This document shows, in pieces, positions 1 through 9,016 of a DNA stretch of 64,000 bases. Source of the stretch: a virus. A program made the position numbers and the translations under genes. The DNA lies in IMG/VR virus record IMGVR_UViG_3300019776_000919, positions 96,001 to 160,000 of that record. The stretch is one strand, 5' to 3'. Under the pieces are notes generated by a model. That model worked only from the letters and a program-made list of their open reading frames with translations. It did no database searches and was not told the origin of the DNA. Each line of letters begins with the position of its first letter. Position 1 is the stretch's first letter.

Positions 1-228
1 AGTCAAGAATGCGCTAGAGAAGCCCGACTATTATCATCCCCCTACCGTTTTACCCAAACAGGGGTTATCCACTAAGTCTCTCTACTAGAGTGTTATTAAT
101 AGAGTGACATAGGATATTTCACTTTCTCTTACTGGTGATGCTGTGGATGGTAAGAGAAGCCATGATAATAGGTCAATCCGGTGGGCTAGCCCGGATGAGG
201 AGGTGTTTGGAACCAGTCGATATTCAGA

Positions 229-1011
229 TCAAGTCAAAGTGTTCCGCATCGCAGAAGAAAAGTGCTTGTGGATCAAATTGTTGAACATTGAAGCCAGGGC
301 GTTGGTGATGTGCTTGAACATGTCCCGGAAAACCAAGCGCAAAACATCGCTGACCAAGAAAATCGGCCAAGCAAGCGTTTTGTCTGCCAAATTCCAAGCA
401 GTCAAAGACTTGTTTAAGGAAAAGACGAACGGGTCCTTGATTTCATTCAGGCAGGATTTGTTTGCCACGTATGAATATTGAATACTAACCATGTCAAACC
501 GAATGAGGGTTTGATCAGACAGTCGACCGGTAAATTTGCGCACGATTTCATACACCTCCAAAACTTCTTTATGAACTCCGGGAGACCAATCTTCATTCGT
601 TTTTTTAAGCAGGTTTTGATAGGTATCAAAAAGTTGATAACTGATCAAAGTCTGCTTCCATGTGTTAGCCAAAAACCCCTTGGTCAAAATAACTTCATGG
701 AGCGTAGCTGCAATGGCATAAATGATGCCTATTGCAAAGTACGCAAAGATGTACCCCGTTGAATTCCAAATTGAAAGACCGAGGTCCCGAACACTTTCAG
801 GATACGATTTCGGAGATACCGTCGCACATATAAATTCATATGCAACAAACCCGAGCGCAATCCAGTAGTACGAGGAGTATTGATCCGGGGTGTTCAAAAA
901 ATCTTGAAGCCTGTAATACTTTCGATCCACCGCTCGGATGCATTCGAAGAGAATCCAAAACCCCAAGACCCAAGTCAAAAGGAACGGAGTGAGAAATTCA
1001 AAAACGATCAT
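229..1011 (-). CDS. hypothetical membrane protein
   Basis: 260-aa ORF with several hydrophobic segments; same strand as neighbours. Confidence 0.7.
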   Translation of the reverse strand: MIVFEFLTPFLLTWVLGFWILFECIRAVDRKYYRLQDFLNTPDQYSSYYWIALGFVAYEFICATVSPKSYPESVRDLGLSIWNSTGYIFAYFAIGIIYAIAATLHEVILTKGFLANTWKQTLISYQLFDTYQNLLKKTNEDWSPGVHKEVLEVYEIVRKFTGRLSDQTLIRFDMVSIQYSYVANKSCLNEIKDPFVFSLNKSLTAWNLADKTLAWPIFLVSDVLRLVFRDMFKHITNALASMFNNLIHKHFSSAMRNTLT

Positions 1012-1100
1012 AAACCACCATTATGAATAGGGGTTGAAATTTAAAGCCAAACTTTGCTATTATTTTTTAGTTTTTGTATCTAGGTCAGTTGACGTTTGAT

Positions 1101-1538
1101 TTAAACCACGTAGCCCCGGTCGACTTGCATCAGCTTACGGATCTCCAGAAGATCCATATGATTGACTTGAAGCGATCCTTGATGATAGTGAGTGGCCCGA
1201 TATCCAATTTTTATAAATACCTCGTGGGCAACATCGCCAGGAACAATGTTGATAATCCCGTTGGGCCGACTTTGAGCTTCAACCATCAATCGATCCAACG
1301 TCTCTTGGATTTGAATCGTGGGACCATCCGCCTTAATGCTTGACATGGATTGAGAGATTTTGCACACGGCGAGGATGTACAAAGGCAGGCTCAAAACAAA
1401 CACCTTTTCTGCTGGAGTTGATTGGCTTGTGCAATACAAACCCCAGACCATCGGAATGCAACAAGACAGCACAATTATTGCAATATTCAGGAGTTTTCGA
1501 TTGTGCGGGGCGGGCAGGGGTTGAAGATTCGATTTCAT
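1101..1538 (-). CDS. hypothetical membrane protein
   Basis: 145 aa, two N-terminal hydrophobic helices, directly downstream of the promoter motif at 1600-1629. Confidence 0.65.
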   Translation of the reverse strand: MKSNLQPLPAPHNRKLLNIAIIVLSCCIPMVWGLYCTSQSTPAEKVFVLSLPLYILAVCKISQSMSSIKADGPTIQIQETLDRLMVEAQSRPNGIINIVPGDVAHEVFIKIGYRATHYHQGSLQVNHMDLLEIRKLMQVDRGYVV

Positions 1539-1599
1539 AGCGCCTCTGATGATTGAAGTATTAGCTAAATTTTCAGGAGACGTATATGTCTCTATACTT

Positions 1600-1629
1600 C
1601 TTATACCAGAATAAGCACTTGTAATTGAA
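1600..1629 (-). promoter_or_regulatory. conserved phage early-type promoter TTCAAT-N15-TGGTATAAG
   Basis: Exact consensus copy, intergenic, upstream of a minus-strand gene. Confidence 0.8.
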
Positions 1630-1637
1630 TGTAGAAT

Positions 1638-1880
1638 TTAATCCGAATATACTAATTCACCGTCAGACAATTTGATGATGTTGGTATACCCTCCCGGTTC
1701 CCTGCTTATGTAACAATCAGTTTCTGTTCTGACCCAAGGAAGGATATCCCCAATTCTGTATTGGGAATACCACATGCGGTGGTCTGAGAAACCAACAATT
1801 TTAATACCTATTGGATTTTTTCTGGCAACAGGAGTTAAAGAGGGGTCGATTATGTTTGTATTTGGCTGAGATTCTTGCAT
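1638..1880 (-). CDS. hypothetical protein
   Basis: 80-aa ORF in the minus-strand run. Confidence 0.55.
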   Translation of the reverse strand: MQESQPNTNIIDPSLTPVARKNPIGIKIVGFSDHRMWYSQYRIGDILPWVRTETDCYISREPGGYTNIIKLSDGELVYSD

Positions 1881-2236
1881 GAACGCAATTCTACCTCGTA
1901 TTTAAGCTGAGGTCTATACCAAATTCTTCCGGATATAGGATTTGGCTCTTGCCGATGCCTAGACCAGTCTGCATATTTACTCATGCCACCTAATTTGTCG
2001 TGCCATCTAAGCATAATTCTGCAAATAGAACCAACGTCTTTTCTTTGGCTGCACGCCATTTCATCAAGGATTTCTCCGGTCGGAGAAAATAGCCTAGCGT
2101 GCCACCTATCATTGATCTTTGTCACTTTAATGTAAATATCGGGATGATTATAAATAACCGGCGGCATCATCTTTTCTTTTTTACATTGTAATTTTTGCCT
2201 ACGTTCTAATTTTTGTTTACGCTTTGACTTTTTCAT
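1850..2236 (-). CDS. hypothetical basic protein
   Basis: 128-aa ORF with Lys/Arg-rich N-terminus. Confidence 0.65.
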   Translation of the reverse strand: MKKSKRKQKLERRQKLQCKKEKMMPPVIYNHPDIYIKVTKINDRWHARLFSPTGEILDEMACSQRKDVGSICRIMLRWHDKLGGMSKYADWSRHRQEPNPISGRIWYRPQLKYEVELRSCKNLSQIQT

Positions 2237-2424
2237 AGTATATAGAATGTGTAGGTAAGCTAAAAACTAAAGAAAATGAGTGAATTCAAACTTGAAATAA
2301 GGTAGGGGGCTACCATAACCTAGGTGTACAGCCTAAGTTACGGTAGCCATTAGGGTTCGGCACGAAGGCACAGGGGAACTCTACGCAGGCCAGATTGCTC
2401 GGGAAGATATTAACCCTTGGTTTA

Positions 2425-2499
2425 GTGTATACGGCAAAGAGTTTATTCTCTACCGTTTCGTCCACTGCTTATAGTCCCGGACTGATCACTACACGGACT
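2425..2499 (-). ncRNA. type I hammerhead ribozyme, G3-C8 core variant, with pseudoknot
   Basis: Minus strand: stem I GUGUA/UACAC, core GUGAUCA, stem II GUCC/GGAC, GAAA, stem III CGGUAGAG/CUCUUUGCCG, cleavage triplet GUA; loop II GGACU can pair with upstream AGUCC. Confidence 0.8.
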
Positions 2500-2517
2500 G
2501 TTGGCTGCTGTGCCGTA

Positions 2518-2919
2518 TTACATGTAGGCACGGGCTTCGCTGAGGACCTTGGCTTCGCCTTCCATGGCGTCGCTAACGGCTTTGTTGAACTGGATGTGGT
2601 CGAAATCCTGCTGCGCCAGAGCTGCTTTCAACTTGGTCAACTCGATCAAGGAATGTTTGATGGCCTTCTCAGCGGCACGCAGCTTGCGAATGGATTTCAC
2701 CCGCTTTTTCAGGTGGGCATCCAGGTCGGAGATCTGGCCGACCTTCACTTGAATGAGATCGTTTTGACGATCTTCGTTCAGTTGTGCCTGGGCTTTCGCA
2801 AAGGCCTCGCTTGAGGCGATGCCGGGGGCCTGCTCGAATTCGGCCAAGTCGTCTGCCGAGACGCTTGCCGCCGGATTTCCGGGGAGCTTCACGTTGTTCT
2901 TCAACTTGTCTTTGCTCAT
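2518..2919 (-). CDS. hypothetical coiled-coil protein
   Basis: 133 aa, GAAAGG SD-like site, GC-richer codon usage, heptad-like helical sequence. Confidence 0.8.
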   Translation of the reverse strand: MSKDKLKNNVKLPGNPAASVSADDLAEFEQAPGIASSEAFAKAQAQLNEDRQNDLIQVKVGQISDLDAHLKKRVKSIRKLRAAEKAIKHSLIELTKLKAALAQQDFDHIQFNKAVSDAMEGEAKVLSEARAYM

Positions 2920-2999
2920 GTTCTGCCTTTCGTGCAGTTGAGTGGTGGTGAAGGAAGATGGTAGGACGTACTGGATTCGAACCAGTGACCATCGGATTA

Positions 3000-3656
3000 C
3001 TTACTACTCCAGTTTTCACTGGCTGATTTTCATCATTGTAGTCTGGACTATATCATCACCTTCTGTCTTCACAGTTAAGGTGTCTTGCTCGTAGTCTCTG
3101 AGGACTCTCATAACGTCTAGGTAATCTGATAGCAAGTTTACCTTGCTATTCTGCCCGTTCTTAGGAGGATCGGCTCTCAGTGTCAAATGTGAACCTGTTG
3201 TTTTCAACAGCTCATCGTTTCTAATCCAAGCAATCTTGTCATCATCAACGCAGTAAACTGCATATATTTGACAATCTTTCATGTTGTATTGAAACCTATA
3301 ATTTGGCCCTGATTTCCAACCGCATACTGAATAAACCCCGTTTGTTTTAGTTACGGTTTTTACCTGTATGCCTATCAGCTTTGACTTTACTTCAAGCACT
3401 AAGTCTATTCTTGAGATATCACCGAGTTCGATGAATACTGAATATCCTAAGGCCAAAAGCTCAGTCGCTACTTTCATTTCTCCTAAATTACCTAATCGCT
3501 TAGTGTGCATAATCTTTTGGATTATACATCACAAGTTGCCTGCTGATTGACCAATCCTTTAGATTTTTACGACTGGGGTCGTACTAAAGGCTCTAAGGTT
3601 ATTCCAGCATATCGCAAGATTTTCATTCACATATTTCTATGTGACGCTTCCAATCA
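3000..3656 (-). mobile_element. group I intron in the tRNA-Lys anticodon (between positions 35 and 36)
   Basis: Exon ends in U, intron ends in G; P1 CUUU/GAAG with U.G at the splice site; P (AUGCUGGAA), Q (AAUCAGCAG), R (UCAGAGACUA), S (GAUAUAGUCC); P3 UCUUGC/GCAAGA. Confidence 0.92.
3016..3510 (-). CDS. intron-encoded PD-(D/E)XK homing endonuclease (I-Ssp6803I-like)
   Basis: GxxGE...GY.V...G....ID...IQVK motif pattern; located inside the intron, with its 3' end overlapping the R/S core elements. Confidence 0.85.
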   Translation of the reverse strand: MHTKRLGNLGEMKVATELLALGYSVFIELGDISRIDLVLEVKSKLIGIQVKTVTKTNGVYSVCGWKSGPNYRFQYNMKDCQIYAVYCVDDDKIAWIRNDELLKTTGSHLTLRADPPKNGQNSKVNLLSDYLDVMRVLRDYEQDTLTVKTEGDDIVQTTMMKISQ

Positions 3657-3737
3657 AAAGTCCGGTGCTCTACCAACTGAGCTAACGTCCCAAATTTGCA
3701 ACCTAGTATTTTACACTAGATTCTAATCGAAATCAAA

Positions 3738-4142
3738 TCAATTCGGCCCAAAGAAATAGATCCAATCACCCATCGTCAGTGCCAGCGACTGAGGGACCGT
3801 GCTGCTGAAAAGGTTTACCCACGCTGCGTACTCCGTCATGGCTGCAGTGTGTTCTTGAATTTTTGCATGGGCTTCAGCGAACGATTTCTGAAGATCAGTA
3901 TTCAAAACCACCTTTGGAGCAGCCCCGGTGTTGGACACCAGATTATGAGACTCGCTTTGGGTAATGGTTACCCCCTTGGTGCGGAGTTCTGCTTCAAGCT
4001 CGTCTTTCCGTTTTACCCAGTATTCAGCCCTGGATTTGCGAAATTCCAACTTCTTCTGTGCCGCTTTCAAAAGAATCGGCTGGTCAAAGTTGAACAACCA
4101 ATTTTCACGATGAGATTCGAAATGCTTAGGGTCAAGTAACAT
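3738..4142 (-). CDS. hypothetical protein
   Basis: ORF-track 3738..4184; ATG at 4142 has an AGAAAGG SD and is the more likely start. Confidence 0.75.
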   Translation of the reverse strand: MLLDPKHFESHRENWLFNFDQPILLKAAQKKLEFRKSRAEYWVKRKDELEAELRTKGVTITQSESHNLVSNTGAAPKVVLNTDLQKSFAEAHAKIQEHTAAMTEYAAWVNLFSSTVPQSLALTMGDWIYFFGPN

Positions 4143-4493
4143 GACAGCCTTTCTATGGGGGTGCCCGACCCTCAAGATGAACAAACTCGTCTTACCACCA
4201 CAGCAGTCGGAGAACGAGGGTCGGGCGAAACTGAAAAATTATGAATCTGAGAGGTTGATAAGGGTGCTGGCTTCAACGCCACGGTCAATAGAGGAGGGTA
4301 TATTGAACGTGATTGGCCCAGAGGGTAGGCCTTTTATGAAACCAGCACTCCTATCAATCTCTACGGGACTTGATAGGGGAATAGTGGTCGCCATTCCGCT
4401 TTTAAATTAGTGCTGTTCCTCAAGTATGCTTTTTATTGCATCGGTGCGGACCTCCTTGGCCGCTCGATTAATGAAGGCATGGTTTCAGGCAAA

Positions 4494-4567
4494 TGGAGCG
4501 GGGTACGAGACTCGAACTCGTTTAGGTAGCTTGGAAGGCTACAGCACAACCCATATGCCAACCCCGC
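4494..4567 (-). tRNA. tRNA-Gly(UCC)
   Basis: Cloverleaf; anticodon arm GTAGC-CTTCCAA-GCTAC; T loop TTCGAGT; CCA end. Confidence 0.93.
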
Positions 4568-4774
4568 AAAAGGCAGAAGTAGAGAAAGACCGGACGTTGC
4601 TCACATGAATGAGCTGGTTAATTCCTCCGGCATAGACCTGGGGCTAAACACCCCCTGCTTGCCACACATTCTCTACTTTGCCAAAACTGAATAACGTCAC
4701 CCTTTACATCTTGTCTGTGGGGTGTTCACAATCGGCTTATCCAACAAGTCTCACCAATCGTTACGTCATATTTA

Positions 4775-4850
4775 TGGCTCCCCGACCTGGGCTCGAACCA
4801 GGGACCTACGGATTAACAGTCCGGCGCTCTACCAACTGAGCTATCAGGGA
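4775..4850 (-). tRNA. tRNA-Asn(GUU)
   Basis: 76-nt cloverleaf, anticodon loop CTGTTAA, CCA end. Confidence 0.95.
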
Positions 4851-5027
4851 ATTGTGAAAGTGGTATTTCATATTATACCACAATCAATGAACAGAAGCGG
4901 CAATCTAGTATGCCTATTACTAATCATTATTAGTACTGTACCCTACCTGAACGTTTAGTCGTGCTCCCAATGCTTCACATGGAAATATGCACGGATCAGG
5001 GTGTTACATGTTTACCGGGTCATTGAT

Positions 5028-5128
5028 TGGAGGAGAGACTGGGATTCGAACCCAGGTTTCAATGCCAATTCCTACCTTCGGTTGCTCCCGTGTAGTCCTT
5101 GCGTCCTAAGCCTCTAGACGATCTCTCT
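5028..5128 (-). ncRNA. tRNA-like RNA with enlarged anticodon arm (no. 1)
   Basis: Acceptor AGAGAGA/TCTCTCC+T+CCA, D arm GTCTAGAGGCTTAGGAC, T arm CTGGG-TTCGAAT-CCCAG; ~42-nt anticodon domain. Confidence 0.75.
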
Positions 5129-5137
5129 TTTTAAAAC

Positions 5138-5249
5138 CTCGTCAAGGTGGAATCAAACCACCATTATGGAGTTGGCATTGCCGTTACGAACAATCGTCGT
5201 GTTTGGCACGTCCTAGTGCTCCATTGTAATGCCATTATACTATCGACGA
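5138..5249 (-). ncRNA. tRNA-like RNA with enlarged anticodon arm (no. 2)
   Basis: Acceptor TCGTCGA/TTGACGA, D arm GTATAATGGCATTAC, T arm GGTGG-TTTGATT-CCACC; ATGGAG/CTCCAT stem encloses a long insert; no encoded CCA. Confidence 0.7.
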
Positions 5250-5914
5250 GTAACATCCGGTCAGCTACTCCGGAGGTTGAAATAGTTAGAAGCTTATTCC
5301 ACGAGCCGTTTATGGTCACGGTGCAAGAATGAACTTCGCTCTGAATACAGCTTCTAACTATTTCAATTGGCAAAGCTCACATACCGTTACCAACAAAGTA
5401 GAACCAAAGGTCCGTGTCATGGTTTTTGCAAATGTCTGCGTGGAGCATGGCCCAGTCCAAGTTCAGACGTGATTGTGGTGATGCGTAGACGTTCAAAAGG
5501 GAAAGCATGTGAACTCCTAACTGTATGAAAGACAAGTCAAGCAATACCTTATCCAAGTGGCCTTATTGAGACTTTTCCAGTAAGAGGGACTCTCCTGGTA
5601 CGGTAGTCAAAAGGGGACTCAAACAAGTGCCGAAGGATTTACCCTGGGAGCCAAAATCACTTTCTTCACTCAAGTTTACCGCGAATAGACTTGATCTATT
5701 AGAACAAAGACTTGTCTTTAATACAGTCAAGGTGGATTGGAAATTACGCAAAAGGTGGTGAACCTCAGTCATCAATTTATAGTTGCGACCTATTGTTGCG
5801 TCTGGGATTAATAACCCGCTGTGTTTCGTGGCCACAAAGAGCACAGTTGAGAGTTACATGATCAGGTTCAGCCAACATTGAATTCTTCAGGTTCACCACC
5901 TTTTGCGCAAATTT

Positions 5915-6262
5915 AAGGTGCCCCTCCTTTGAGGCACGGTACTCTTACAAAGCAAGGCTCCTTGCGAACAAGGATCTTGGGAGGGGCATCTGAACTAGAA
6001 GGAAACTCCTAGTTCAGAACTTCGGTTCAGGCTGCGAGAGCCTGGACATAGCTGCTGTCATTGGCAGTTACTTGTTTACCTACATGTTTAACGAGCATAC
6101 AGGCTGGCTCGTGTTGTAGTCTAAGATACTAATCTGTCAATCGAATGCCTAGTCACCCCCATTGAACAGCTTAATGGTGGAGGTGCCCGGAATCGAACCG
6201 GGGTCTTGCCAGTTGTTCTCTCTTTCTTTCAGATGAGCGAACTCATCACACAACAATTCTTT
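5915..6262 (-). ncRNA. ssrA: circularly permuted (two-piece) tmRNA; tag (A)ANDSSYVQALAA
   Basis: Acceptor piece ending ...TTCGATTCCGGGCACCTCCACCA (6175) lies upstream of the coding piece starting GGGGGTG (6160); G3.U70 pair; tag ORF 6065-6027. Outer ends are approximate. Confidence 0.92.
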
Positions 6263-6335
6263 TAAAGGTCCAACTTCTACCTTTTTACTACTACATAACC
6301 GCAGGTGATACCTCTAACACCCTCGCTATGTTTAG

Positions 6336-6623
6336 TTAACCCTTCAGATTTTCATCTTTGGGCTTGATCCATTCCAATCTGAGAAAATTGGTGTAATCAC
6401 TGGGATCGTAACGGTCGTAGTACAAACACTGAGTGTGAATCCAGTGAGCTGTAATACGTACGTCTTCCGGCTTAGCATCAGGCCAACGTTCTTTAGCTTT
6501 AGCCAAAAGGCCTGCTAAGTCAAGCTGCTCGACATAATAGCCGGTTTCGATCCAAAATTCAGTCTCAGTGTCATCAGGCCAGAAGTCGACAATTTCTGTA
6601 CCCTTGCGAGTTGTTTTGCCCAT
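6336..6623 (-). CDS. hypothetical protein
   Basis: Start at ATG 6623 gives a TAATG overlap with the upstream gene. Confidence 0.75.
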   Translation of the reverse strand: MGKTTRKGTEIVDFWPDDTETEFWIETGYYVEQLDLAGLLAKAKERWPDAKPEDVRITAHWIHTQCLYYDRYDPSDYTNFLRLEWIKPKDENLKG

Positions 6624-7093
6624 TATGAAAACTCGTGGGCCACAAGATCCCAAGTACCTTTACCGTAGCCCACTGCCCCATGACCAAGGACACCTTCACC
6701 GTTGAGTCTGAGTCGAAGTAATCCTTTCGGACCCTTGATTGCGTTGTTCACGGAAAAGTAATGCTCTTCACTGGAGTACCATGCCCAAGGGCCGACCCAG
6801 GGTAGCGGATCTCGCTCCCAGGGAGGTATTTTGTTTTCTCGAACCATGATGATGTTCATCATTTGTTCAAAAGTTAAATCCGGCCAGGGATGACCTTCGG
6901 TATGGATACTACCCGTCTTCAACAATTTAACCCAGTCATCCAAGTCATTAATACCCTTGTCAGGGTACACTCGGAGTTTGAAGGTCCAACCAGCTGAAGA
7001 CTTTCCAATGTGAAGTGTTTGCGGCGGGTCGAATCGACCGCAACATTCACAAGGTTTACCAGCTTTTGTTGCAAGATAGAAATTGGTTCCCAT
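6623..7093 (-). CDS. hypothetical phage protein (MGTNFY...CxxC...HIGKSSAGW)
   Basis: 156 aa, GGAGG SD, CxxC motif. Confidence 0.8.
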   Translation of the reverse strand: MGTNFYLATKAGKPCECCGRFDPPQTLHIGKSSAGWTFKLRVYPDKGINDLDDWVKLLKTGSIHTEGHPWPDLTFEQMMNIIMVRENKIPPWERDPLPWVGPWAWYSSEEHYFSVNNAIKGPKGLLRLRLNGEGVLGHGAVGYGKGTWDLVAHEFS

Positions 7094-7120
7094 TACGCCC
7101 TCCGTAATAGAAGTTATTCG

Positions 7121-7275
7121 GGTGGTTAAGCAGGGATTCGAACCCCGGTACAGTCACAAGCAAATGTGTTAGCCGAACTTGTACGCCTCATGGAGGAGGA
7201 CCGTCATAGTTTGGTTACTGGCCAAAGAGGCTACTTTGCTGTTGTCTGTGTTTTGCCGTATTAAACTACTTAACC
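7121..7275 (-). ncRNA. tRNA-like RNA with very large anticodon arm (no. 3)
   Basis: Perfect acceptor GGTTAAG/CTTAACC+ACC, D arm GTTTAATACGGCAAAAC, T arm CGGGG-TTCGAAT-CCCTG; ~100-nt paired anticodon domain. Confidence 0.78.
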
Positions 7276-7416
7276 GAAACTTTTTGCACCCATAGATCAA
7301 GGCTTGATTACTCCGCATAGGCTGCGGTTTTCTTAGTCATTCACTGTCGGTGTCACCCATCCCAGGGCCAATTCCGGGATTGATAATCTAGCCTTGATCT
7401 ATGGGCACGTTTGAAA

Positions 7417-7605
7417 TTAACCTTGTTGTTCCAAGGCTTTTGCCCAAGTCCATGCAGTCAAGAAAAGCGCAAATATTCCCAGCACTGCTACTACTAACAC
7501 AAGGATGGCAAGCCCTATGCCGGTAGGTTTGGTGGTCAAACTCATCGTAACGACAAGAGTGGCAGTACAAATTATCCACGCAAGCCAGACATTTTTCAGA
7601 GTCAT
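7417..7605 (-). CDS. small two-helix membrane protein
   Basis: 62 aa, two hydrophobic helices, GAGGTG SD. Confidence 0.6.
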   Translation of the reverse strand: MTLKNVWLAWIICTATLVVTMSLTTKPTGIGLAILVLVVAVLGIFALFLTAWTWAKALEQQG

Positions 7606-7659
7606 TATTAAACACCTCTGGTCAGAATTGAGATGAAGACTGAGAATCGAATTTAAGAT

Positions 7660-7751
7660 TGGCGGGTAAGGTGAGATTCGAACTCACGGAGCATCTTTCA
7701 ACACCCGACGACTTAGCAAGCCGCTGCCTTAGACCACTCGGCCACCTACCC
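7660..7751 (-). tRNA. tRNA-Ser(GCU)
   Basis: Class II cloverleaf with long variable arm, loop TTGCTAA, GCCA end. Confidence 0.95.
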
Positions 7752-7776
7752 TGCGCATAACTCAATCCTACAAACT

Positions 7777-7867
7777 TGGCGGAGGCGGTGAGATTCGAAC
7801 TCACGGGCCGGGGTTACCGACCGACGGTTTTCAAGACCGTTGCATTAAACCACTCTGCCACATCTCC
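7777..7867 (-). tRNA. tRNA-Ser(UGA)
   Basis: Class II cloverleaf, loop CTTGAAA, GCCA end. Confidence 0.95.
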
Positions 7868-7913
7868 AATTTTATTTACTAAGCAAGTTGTATTATAACT
7901 TGGTTACATCATT

Positions 7914-7943
7914 CTTATACCATGTATATTACAACTTATTGAA
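7914..7943 (-). promoter_or_regulatory. conserved promoter heading the tRNA/ncRNA island
   Basis: Exact TTCAAT-N15-TGGTATAAG just upstream of the first tRNA. Confidence 0.8.
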
Positions 7944-7950
7944 AAAAGTA

Positions 7951-8310
7951 TTATATCATACTTTGTTCTTCAGCAAGCAACGCACAAAACTTCAGCCACG
8001 CATAGCGTGTAGGTTGACGAGTCTTTGTAGAAGGAAACTCCTCGAAGGCAAGTGTAGTAGAAGGGTTTAGTCCTAGTTCTATAAGACCCCGGCGAATTAC
8101 TTTTCCTATTTTGTATGCCGTTTGAATATTCCCGCCCTTATCTCTAACCGTGGCATAAACTGCTTTAGTAATCGCAAGGCAGCTATATAATTCTTTATTT
8201 GTATTATGAGGTTTTATAAAAGAATTAGCAAGAAACTCATCAGCAGCACGATGGAGTATTTCTGCAATGATTTCAGAGGTGATCATTGCGTAGTCGATCT
8301 TTTTACTCAT
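7951..8310 (-). CDS. paralog family A, copy 4
   Basis: Shares (H..AD..L...SC.AI) and C-terminal F.EFP...TRQ..RYAWLKFCALL.EE with three neighbours. Confidence 0.85.
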   Translation of the reverse strand: MSKKIDYAMITSEIIAEILHRAADEFLANSFIKPHNTNKELYSCLAITKAVYATVRDKGGNIQTAYKIGKVIRRGLIELGLNPSTTLAFEEFPSTKTRQPTRYAWLKFCALLAEEQSMI

Positions 8311-8624
8311 ATCACACCTTCTTCAACAAGTAATGCACAAAACTTCAGCCAGGCATACCGAACTGATTGGCGAACTTCACCTTCGGGGAATTCATTGAAT
8401 TGATCAGTACAATTAATGTTTAACCCTAATTCTTCCAGGGTAGATTCAATTAGGAAACCTATGAAATCTTCATCCTCGTAAATTACTGATTTCTCATGTG
8501 CCAAATTAAATAAAGCATCCACAATCGCATGGCAACTGTAATCACGATAATCTAAGTATTCATCAGCAGCAAGGTGAAATACTTCTGCGAAGTTGATCAG
8601 TGTATGGTTTATTTTTTCACTCAT
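8307..8624 (-). CDS. paralog family A, copy 3
   Basis: Same motifs; ATGA overlap places the start at 8624. Confidence 0.85.
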   Translation of the reverse strand: MSEKINHTLINFAEVFHLAADEYLDYRDYSCHAIVDALFNLAHEKSVIYEDEDFIGFLIESTLEELGLNINCTDQFNEFPEGEVRQSVRYAWLKFCALLVEEGVI

Positions 8625-9016
8625 ATTGCACCTTCTTCCGCAAGCAAAGCACAAAACTTCAACCAGGCATATCGGACTGATTGACGAGTTTCACCTTCAG
8701 GGAACTCGTCAAAGGATCTGATCCCAATTACATTTAATCCGGCTTTTTTCAAAAAAGTGAAAACAGTGTCTACCGAGTACTCAAGTGGAATTTTTACTGG
8801 AACGTTAATTTTTCCGGAATTAGAGGAGTATCGTAAGTACTGTGTTGCAAGTGAAACAGCATCACACGAAAAACCATATTGACGAACAGAGTCTTTTTCA
8901 GAGGGAATATTTGTATGGCTAGTATTAGATAAGCAATGGTCCGCCGCAAAATGGAAAATACTAGCCAGTATTTGATTTTCAAAAGCTTTAATTTCTTCTT
9001 TAGTTTTTTTACTCAT
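8621..9016 (-). CDS. paralog family A, copy 2
   Basis: Same motifs; ATGA coupling. Confidence 0.85.
   Translation of the reverse strand: MSKKTKEEIKAFENQILASIFHFAADHCLSNTSHTNIPSEKDSVRQYGFSCDAVSLATQYLRYSSNSGKINVPVKIPLEYSVDTVFTFLKKAGLNVIGIRSFDEFPEGETRQSVRYAWLKFCALLAEEGAI

Follow-up and report, generated by a model that had tools for sequence, protein, structure and literature searches.

A 75-base element on the minus strand of a large phage genome, at positions 2499-2425 of the window analysed here, is in our estimate, with a probability of roughly 0.7, a genuine type I hammerhead ribozyme in which a G3-C8 pair replaces the C3-G8 pair of the catalytic core. The window is the whole 64,000-nucleotide stretch that was analysed; it spans bases 96001-160000 of an IMG/VR phage record that is 169.7 kb long and carries direct terminal repeats. 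This phage encodes split multisubunit RNA polymerase subunits, and among named phages its closest relative is Salmonella phage Arash (~52% protein identity). Sequence comparisons indicate that natural G3-C8 hammerheads exist, the window element being the third, singleton case, and because the same exchange is present in the hammerheads of other phages, the window element is probably a working natural variant. We found no description of a natural hammerhead with the G-C orientation at positions 3 and 8 in the open literature searched, where U3-A8 appears to be the one exchange reported, so that the natural G3-C8 form is apparently undescribed there.

The element shows the complete hammerhead layout, its three stems (I, II, III) measuring 5, 4-5 and 10 bp, respectively. 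Along the minus strand, the segment AGUCC (2499-2495), a candidate pseudoknot strand, immediately precedes the 5' strand of stem I, GUGUA (2494-2490, positions 2.5-2.1), which is followed by the core GUGAUCA (2489-2483; G3 U4 G5 A6 U7 C8 A9, with the consensus CUGANGA) and by the 5' strand of stem II, GUCC, with G10.1 first (2482-2479). Loop II (2478-2464) comprises 15 nt, or 13 nt if the G2478.U2464 wobble pairs, and contains GGACU (2477-2473). The 3' strand of stem II, GGAC, with C11.1 last (2463-2460), leads into G12 A13 A14 (2459-2457) and then into the 10-bp stem III hairpin (2456-2431, in which 2456-2447 pairs with 2440-2431), which has A15.1-U16.1 at its base and is closed by the loop AUAAAC (2446-2441). 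Next comes A17 (2430), and the layout is completed by the 3' strand of stem I, UACAC (2429-2425, positions 1.1-1.5, U1.1 being 2429). Both strands of stems I and II and the G12 A13 A14 segment are read from the sequence and also from the family covariance model R2 described below. The invariant nucleotides U4, G5, A6 and A9 as well as G12, A13 and A14 are all present, and the canonical pairs G10.1-C11.1, A15.1-U16.1 (A2456-U2431) and C15.2-G16.2 as well as A17 (H at position 17) are retained. The departures from the hammerhead consensus are solely C3 to G (2489) and G8 to C (2484); given that positions 3 and 8 pair in the active fold, the 3-8 pair is inverted rather than lost. The first-pass annotation, which had proposed a minus-strand type I hammerhead with GUGAUCA in place of CUGAUGA, was exact in its layout and coordinates, and the GUA cut site that it predicted between 2430 and 2429 is the scissile bond assigned by hammerhead numbering. 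As in other members of this ribozyme class, cleavage would be expected to generate a 2',3'-cyclic phosphate at A2430, with U2429 bearing a 5'-OH.

Two further structural proposals of the same annotation, namely a 5-bp loop II pseudoknot and a longer enclosing helix, fare differently. The GGACU segment of loop II is fully Watson-Crick complementary to AGUCC, with a duplex energy of -5.4 kcal/mol, so a 5-bp AGUCC/GGACU pseudoknot is possible; the complementarity thus holds, but there is no covariation for this pairing and the sister family described below has no pseudoknot. The letters of the enclosing helix, GGCACAG/CUGUGCC, are likewise present, but such a match is at chance level (we calculate that 360 nt should contain ~4 perfect 7-mer pairs) and the helix is missing from the predicted folds.

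No orthologue of the window element was detected in the collections searched, and hence its stems and pseudoknot have no covariation support of their own. Nothing similar was found in 16 related phage contigs, and the phage's other assemblies (L021-L023) show 100% identity, leaving no variation to compare. Rfam searches of the region, both at the gathering threshold and at E<=10, gave no hammerhead match for the window element; searches with RF00163 and RF02276 over the whole genome and the 16 relatives, and with our own descriptor for types I, II and III over 1.1 Mb of related phages, also yielded no hammerhead. A model built from the single window sequence (R1) had one match in 17 records, in a coding region of G006, and the sole IMG/VR match to a pattern with the exact stem II (L002) lacks stems I and III; both were dismissed as chance.

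A scan of IMG/VR with the fixed bases of the window element returned 75 loci, among which L091 alone has good stems (6, 4 and 9 bp), the others being noise-like. A 269-aa ORF has its stop codon 8 nt before the start of the L091 motif, which precedes the next gene. The family was extended via homologues of the 269-aa ORF and of the downstream 138-aa gene, which are found in many phage-like contigs from several studies, and the gap preceding the 138-aa gene holds a type I hammerhead in each such contig, with the stem I sequence GGCUAA/UUAGUC. The GUGAUCA core occurs in three distinct sequence types, L091, L201 and L212, of which L201 has stem II GCUU/AAGC, and L212 has stem II UCCU/AGGU together with a compensated stem III. 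L204, L213 and L214, which have stem III in common with L091, carry a CUGACGA core, and a CUGAUGA core is present in L200, L202, L203, L206 and L208, in which stem III is compensated; a more distant relative, L217, has the canonical CUGAUGA and follows a different gene. Compensating changes are thus seen in stems II and III of the sister family. With the swap both natural and conserved in this family, the main reason for doubting the window element is removed.

The canonical members of the family also bear on the failure of Rfam to detect the window element. Two of the canonical-core types have a U10.1.U11.1 mismatch, with stem III of 9-10 bp, and a Rfam 15 scan at E<=1 of L200 and its relatives (L204 and L217 themselves being outside the scan) reported no hammerhead family for them despite their canonical cores. 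The silence of Rfam on the window element therefore carries little weight. The earlier claim that the swap hides the element from consensus searches is borne out in that Rfam misses it, but not in making the swap the sole reason, given that canonical siblings are missed too.

In L200 (2750-2810 and 3546-3605) and L203 (75-135 and 871-930), a canonical and a G3-C8 hammerhead are located around one two-gene block. Stem I, GGCUAA/UUAGUC, is the same in the two hammerheads of each locus. Once both had cut, the termini of the RNA released between them could form a hammerhead again, and this might permit ligation to a circle. A related 138-aa gene locus (L207, ~430-470) retains nothing but CCGUAUUAGUC ahead of the gene, a segment that spans the last part of stem III, the cleavage site and stem I's 3' strand; other sequence stands in place of the remaining ribozyme, as though recombination had had its boundary within the hammerhead. 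The L091 family also contains a repeated AUUAGUC segment that permits alternative pairing.

A further natural occurrence of the swap is in a different structural class. In a 156-kb phage contig (L339, IMGVR_UViG_3300034062_004313), an element at 7728-7796 of the minus strand, just before a gene start, has the core GUGACCA and a GUC site. It matches RF03152, the RAGATH-1 hammerhead, over the full length with 52.5 bits (E 3.5e-8; the gathering score is 56.3), and its core mismatches to this family are solely G3 and C8. The notion that avoidance of a G3-C17 trap explains a preference for A17 (for which there is a hint in PMC3884650) was dropped, since the G3-C8 element of L339 has C17.

The covariance model R2, built from four members of the sister family with 3-8 treated as a pair and with the window sequence left out, has a single match in the 64-kb window, at 2494-2425 on the minus strand (24.5 bits), with all stems and the core aligned. 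Among 1.1 Mb of related phages, R2 scored no higher than 20.4 bits, at a site in L050 that is not a hammerhead, since position 4 is A and stem II is missing; a 15.9-bit match in the phage's own genome, at 166692-166737, was rejected as the core is missing. Because L091 was found by a pattern derived from the window, the R2 match is not independent evidence of homology. An alignment of seven distinct sequences including the window element (A5) has 97.7% of its cells paired, with both sides changing in 12 of the 20 pairs, and the 3-8 pair is G-C in four of the seven sequences, C-G in the other three and unpaired in none. None of 500 shuffles reached these values, and slid controls fall to ~40% paired. 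The strong covariation is confined to the sister family, being seen also in its four seed sequences.

The window element lies in the sense orientation within a 281-nt non-coding gap, with a minus-strand ORF on either side. The upstream ORF (2919-2518, minus strand, 133 aa) is an orphan, with zero homologues among the 5.8 billion proteins searched, and its stop codon is located 18 nt 5' of the element. It has a ribosome-binding site and codon usage typical of the genome, its score of 0.186 per codon (the genome mean is 0.228) being the best of the six frames. By comparison, a 51-codon frame running across the ribozyme has a codon-usage score below zero. The downstream ORF (2236-1850, minus strand, 128 aa) has few distant homologues, which occur in other gene contexts, and no ribozyme was found near their genes. 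Between the element and this ORF, 76 nt 3' of the cut site, there is a 17-bp hairpin (2348-2308, minus strand) that has a U-rich tail after it and may act as a terminator or stabiliser; the downstream hairpin that had been noted at ~2309-2348 is thus real, with 17-nt arms that are 88% complementary.

One homologue of the downstream ORF (56% identity), in a 401-kb contig (L084, 6001-7422), is encoded immediately 5' of a gene for the RNA ligase RtcB. RtcB ligates 2',3'-cyclic phosphate to 5'-OH ends. No RtcB was found in the window's phage.

Upstream of the 133-aa ORF, the last tRNA ends at ~2957. This is a tRNA-Lys(UUU) (2957-3691, minus strand) whose anticodon loop is apparently split by a group I intron (RF00028, weak matches of 23 and 20 bits); the intron encodes a PD-(D/E)XK endonuclease (PF11645, E 3e-21), and CCA is encoded at the end of the 3' exon. 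Further upstream is an island of tRNAs and a permuted tmRNA, in which the circularly permuted tmRNA (6027-6231, minus strand; RF04321, 81.5 bits), with the tag ANDSSYVQALAA, is located amid the phage tRNAs. The small ORFs in the first ~9500 bases of the window had no match in 1.1 Mb of related sequence (11 of the 16 related contigs, with 1-9016 as the tested span); conserved genes, including an SNF2 helicase, begin at ~9975. The lack of relatives for these ORFs places the tRNA/tmRNA island and the ribozyme within a lineage-specific accessory region.

The main alternative to a working ribozyme is a chance look-alike, in which the 10-bp hairpin would be of an ordinary kind, stabilising an mRNA 3' end or resembling a terminator, and the flanking sequences would mimic the core, with no cleavage; we consider this unlikely. 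The element is an unconserved singleton, hammerheads are absent from the related phages examined, the region contains many other hairpins, and stem III alone is robust in thermodynamic folds, stems I and II being weak; all of this would fit a look-alike. The chance rate of the motif was estimated with our own descriptor, which requires a core with any Watson-Crick 3-8 pair, GAAA, U16.1, H17 and three stems. On both strands of the whole genome, the window element is the only type I match, two further matches with A/U-rich UUGAAAA cores and minimal stems being rejected as chance level. When 299 genomes were simulated with matching dinucleotide composition, 29 loose matches arose across the four Watson-Crick core variants, that is ~0.1 per 170-kb genome, which also is compatible with a look-alike; however, only 7 of these matches have stems of at least 5/4/4 bp and one has a stem III of at least 8 bp. 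Similarly, when 250 decoy cores were sought in 1.27 Mb of real phage DNA, each core had on average 0.044 matches at >=5/4/4, and none occurred at >=5/4/8. For each core and genome, chance would thus supply ~0.006 motifs with stems of >=5/4/4, or <0.0005 once a stem III of at least 8 bp is also demanded, so that at the observed stem lengths the rate is at most 0.006. At least ~247 chance matches to 19-20 fixed bases, in IMG/VR and bacterial genomes, have summed stems of at most 11 bp, compared with 20 bp in the window element; in the bacterial genomes, the fixed-base pattern hit at least 119 loci, none with hammerhead stems among the matches listed. Given that ~250,000 windows were scanned overall, a few chance look-alikes of equal quality are nonetheless expected, and independent evidence was needed. 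Features that fit a hammerhead and argue against coincidence are the G10.1-C11.1, C15.2-G16.2 and A-U 15.1-16.1 pairs, H17, the sense strand, the intergenic site and the possible 5-bp tertiary pairing; moreover, with natural G3-C8 hammerheads documented, the swap requires no special plea.

Another alternative, which we regard as quite improbable, is that the element derives from a hammerhead and is slow, conditional or catalytically dead, for example a switch with the core locked by competing pairings and released, as one possibility, when a ribosome terminates translation at the stop codon close by. The folding energetics, which also weigh against the main reading, are relevant here. Stem III has pair probabilities of 0.9-1.0 in all contexts folded, but nearest-neighbour folding of the isolated element assigns a probability of only 0.06-0.07 to the catalytic register of stem I and to stem II; in the preferred fold, stem I is shifted by three bases (UAGUG/CACUA) and consumes G3-G5. 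The hammerhead fold has an energy of -19 to -20 kcal/mol compared with -22.4 for the minimum free energy structure, a gap of 2-3 kcal/mol from which tertiary energy is excluded. Besides this shifted stem I, the competing pairings would include the AGUCC/GGAC duplicates and an 11-nt inverted repeat (2518-2508 and 2439-2429, 10 of 11 positions complementary) that could bury the cleavage site: its upstream arm overlaps the stop codon of the 133-aa ORF, and the other arm corresponds to the 3' strand of stem III and the cleavage site. The existence of these alternative helices in the sequence, the overlap of the 11-nt helix with the stop codon, the partial in vitro activity of G3-C8 double mutants (PMC8495972, PMC11167929), which likewise counts against the main reading, and the similar potential of the AUUAGUC repeat in the L091 family are consistent with a switch. 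Conversely, the alternative helices have no comparative support, inverted repeats of 7-11 nt are near chance in 360 nt (six pairs were reported), and the local stem III hairpin should fold first during transcription.

Returning to the reading of the element as an active G3-C8 hammerhead, its most likely role, as predicted from the gene order, is to cut the transcript between the 133-aa and 128-aa ORFs rather than to trim a tRNA. The suggestion that it processes the 3' end of the tRNA/ncRNA transcript is not supported: the 133-aa ORF stands between the last tRNA and the ribozyme, and the cut would therefore part two mRNAs. The element would be transcribed within a minus-strand message extending from the tRNA/tmRNA island through the 133-aa ORF. 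The three-way junction would then fold, possibly assisted by the 5-bp loop II pseudoknot, and cut itself after A2430. The upstream mRNA would thus end in a compact ribozyme fold with a 2',3'-cyclic phosphate, and the downstream RNA would start with a 5'-OH at U2429 and carry the 17-bp hairpin and the 128-aa ORF. Cleavage, the pseudoknot and the effect on the two mRNAs are all to be taken as predictions.

Hammerheads of phages and prophages have been described previously in settings between genes, with a pseudoknot between stem I and loop II in all three types (Perreault et al., 2011; PMC3088659). The RF00163 type I hammerheads of that study share with the window element the open stem I junction, the core except for positions 3 and 8, the G10.1-C11.1 and A15.1-U16.1 pairs, the GUA triplet, the location between same-strand phage genes and, possibly, the pseudoknot. 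They differ in having C3-G8, whereas the window element has G3-C8 and no Rfam match at E<=10; in addition, prophage hammerheads are often grouped (PMC3088659), whereas the window element is the only one in its genome. Natural hammerheads with a U3-A8 covariation have been reported (Perreault et al., 2011, PMC3088659; Cervera and de la Pena, 2014, PMC4209133) and likewise represent a compensatory 3-8 exchange in a natural ribozyme, to U-A there and to G-C in the window element. The core change of the engineered C3G/G8C hammerheads is identical to that of the window element, but these are laboratory constructs, in contrast to the natural occurrence reported here and to the sister family, in which the swap is conserved alongside canonical copies. 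In vitro, either single mutant loses activity and the double mutant regains part of it (cited in PMC8495972; tested with the hammerhead of a Penelope-like element in PMC11167929). The expectation in the first-pass annotation that the compensatory swap keeps activity is accordingly supported for part of the in vitro activity but not for full activity.

The sister family has in common with the window element the type I layout, the GUGAUCA core, the GAAACGG...CCGUA|U segments and the location just past a stop codon, ahead of the next gene, and G10.1-C11.1 is present in two of its three G3-C8 types, as in the window element. It differs in the unrelated hosts and flanking genes, in a 5-nt loop II without a pseudoknot and in a stem I of 6 bp. 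As the shared bases are partly imposed by the search pattern, homology between the sister family and the window element is not established. The pseudoknot (RAGATH-1) hammerhead RF03152, for which a crystal structure is available (PMC11300833), resembles the window element in that the sequence 5' of stem I pairs, or in the window element possibly pairs, with the A9-G12 segment, and to judge from L339 this class also tolerates G3-C8 in nature. However, in RAGATH-1 helix II is replaced by a pseudoknot with an upstream hairpin loop and there is an A-rich linker, whereas the window element keeps the stem II hairpin and has no helix IV or upstream hairpin, no A-rich linker and no RF03152 match.

Taken jointly, the three cases allow a broader reading that we put forward only tentatively and consider somewhat doubtful, namely that G3-C8 hammerheads are a recurrent subclass in phages, with at least three independent origins, that is fully functional in vivo and has been overlooked. 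The respective lineages would be the 170-kb phage of the window, the family before the 138-aa gene and the RAGATH-1-type element of the 156-kb phage. Under this reading, the G3-C8 forms would have been overlooked because consensus filters and covariance models reject core changes. For the window element, the combination of the swap, the AGUCC/GGAC duplicates and the helix at the stop codon could tie cleavage to the translation of the upstream ORF.

In the full-length hammerhead structure, the key surprise was the C3-G8 pair; this pair positions G8, whose 2'-OH is the general acid. The natural G3-C8 form shows that evolution uses a solution that rescues activity just partly in laboratory swaps, and the natural pairs of canonical and swapped hammerheads at one locus are ready material for measuring the cost of the swap. 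Perreault et al. (PMC3088659) excluded every core mutation; together with the Rfam misses, this filter implies that the numbers of phage hammerheads are underestimated. For the phage of the window, a defined processing site is predicted between two small genes beside a large tRNA/tmRNA island.
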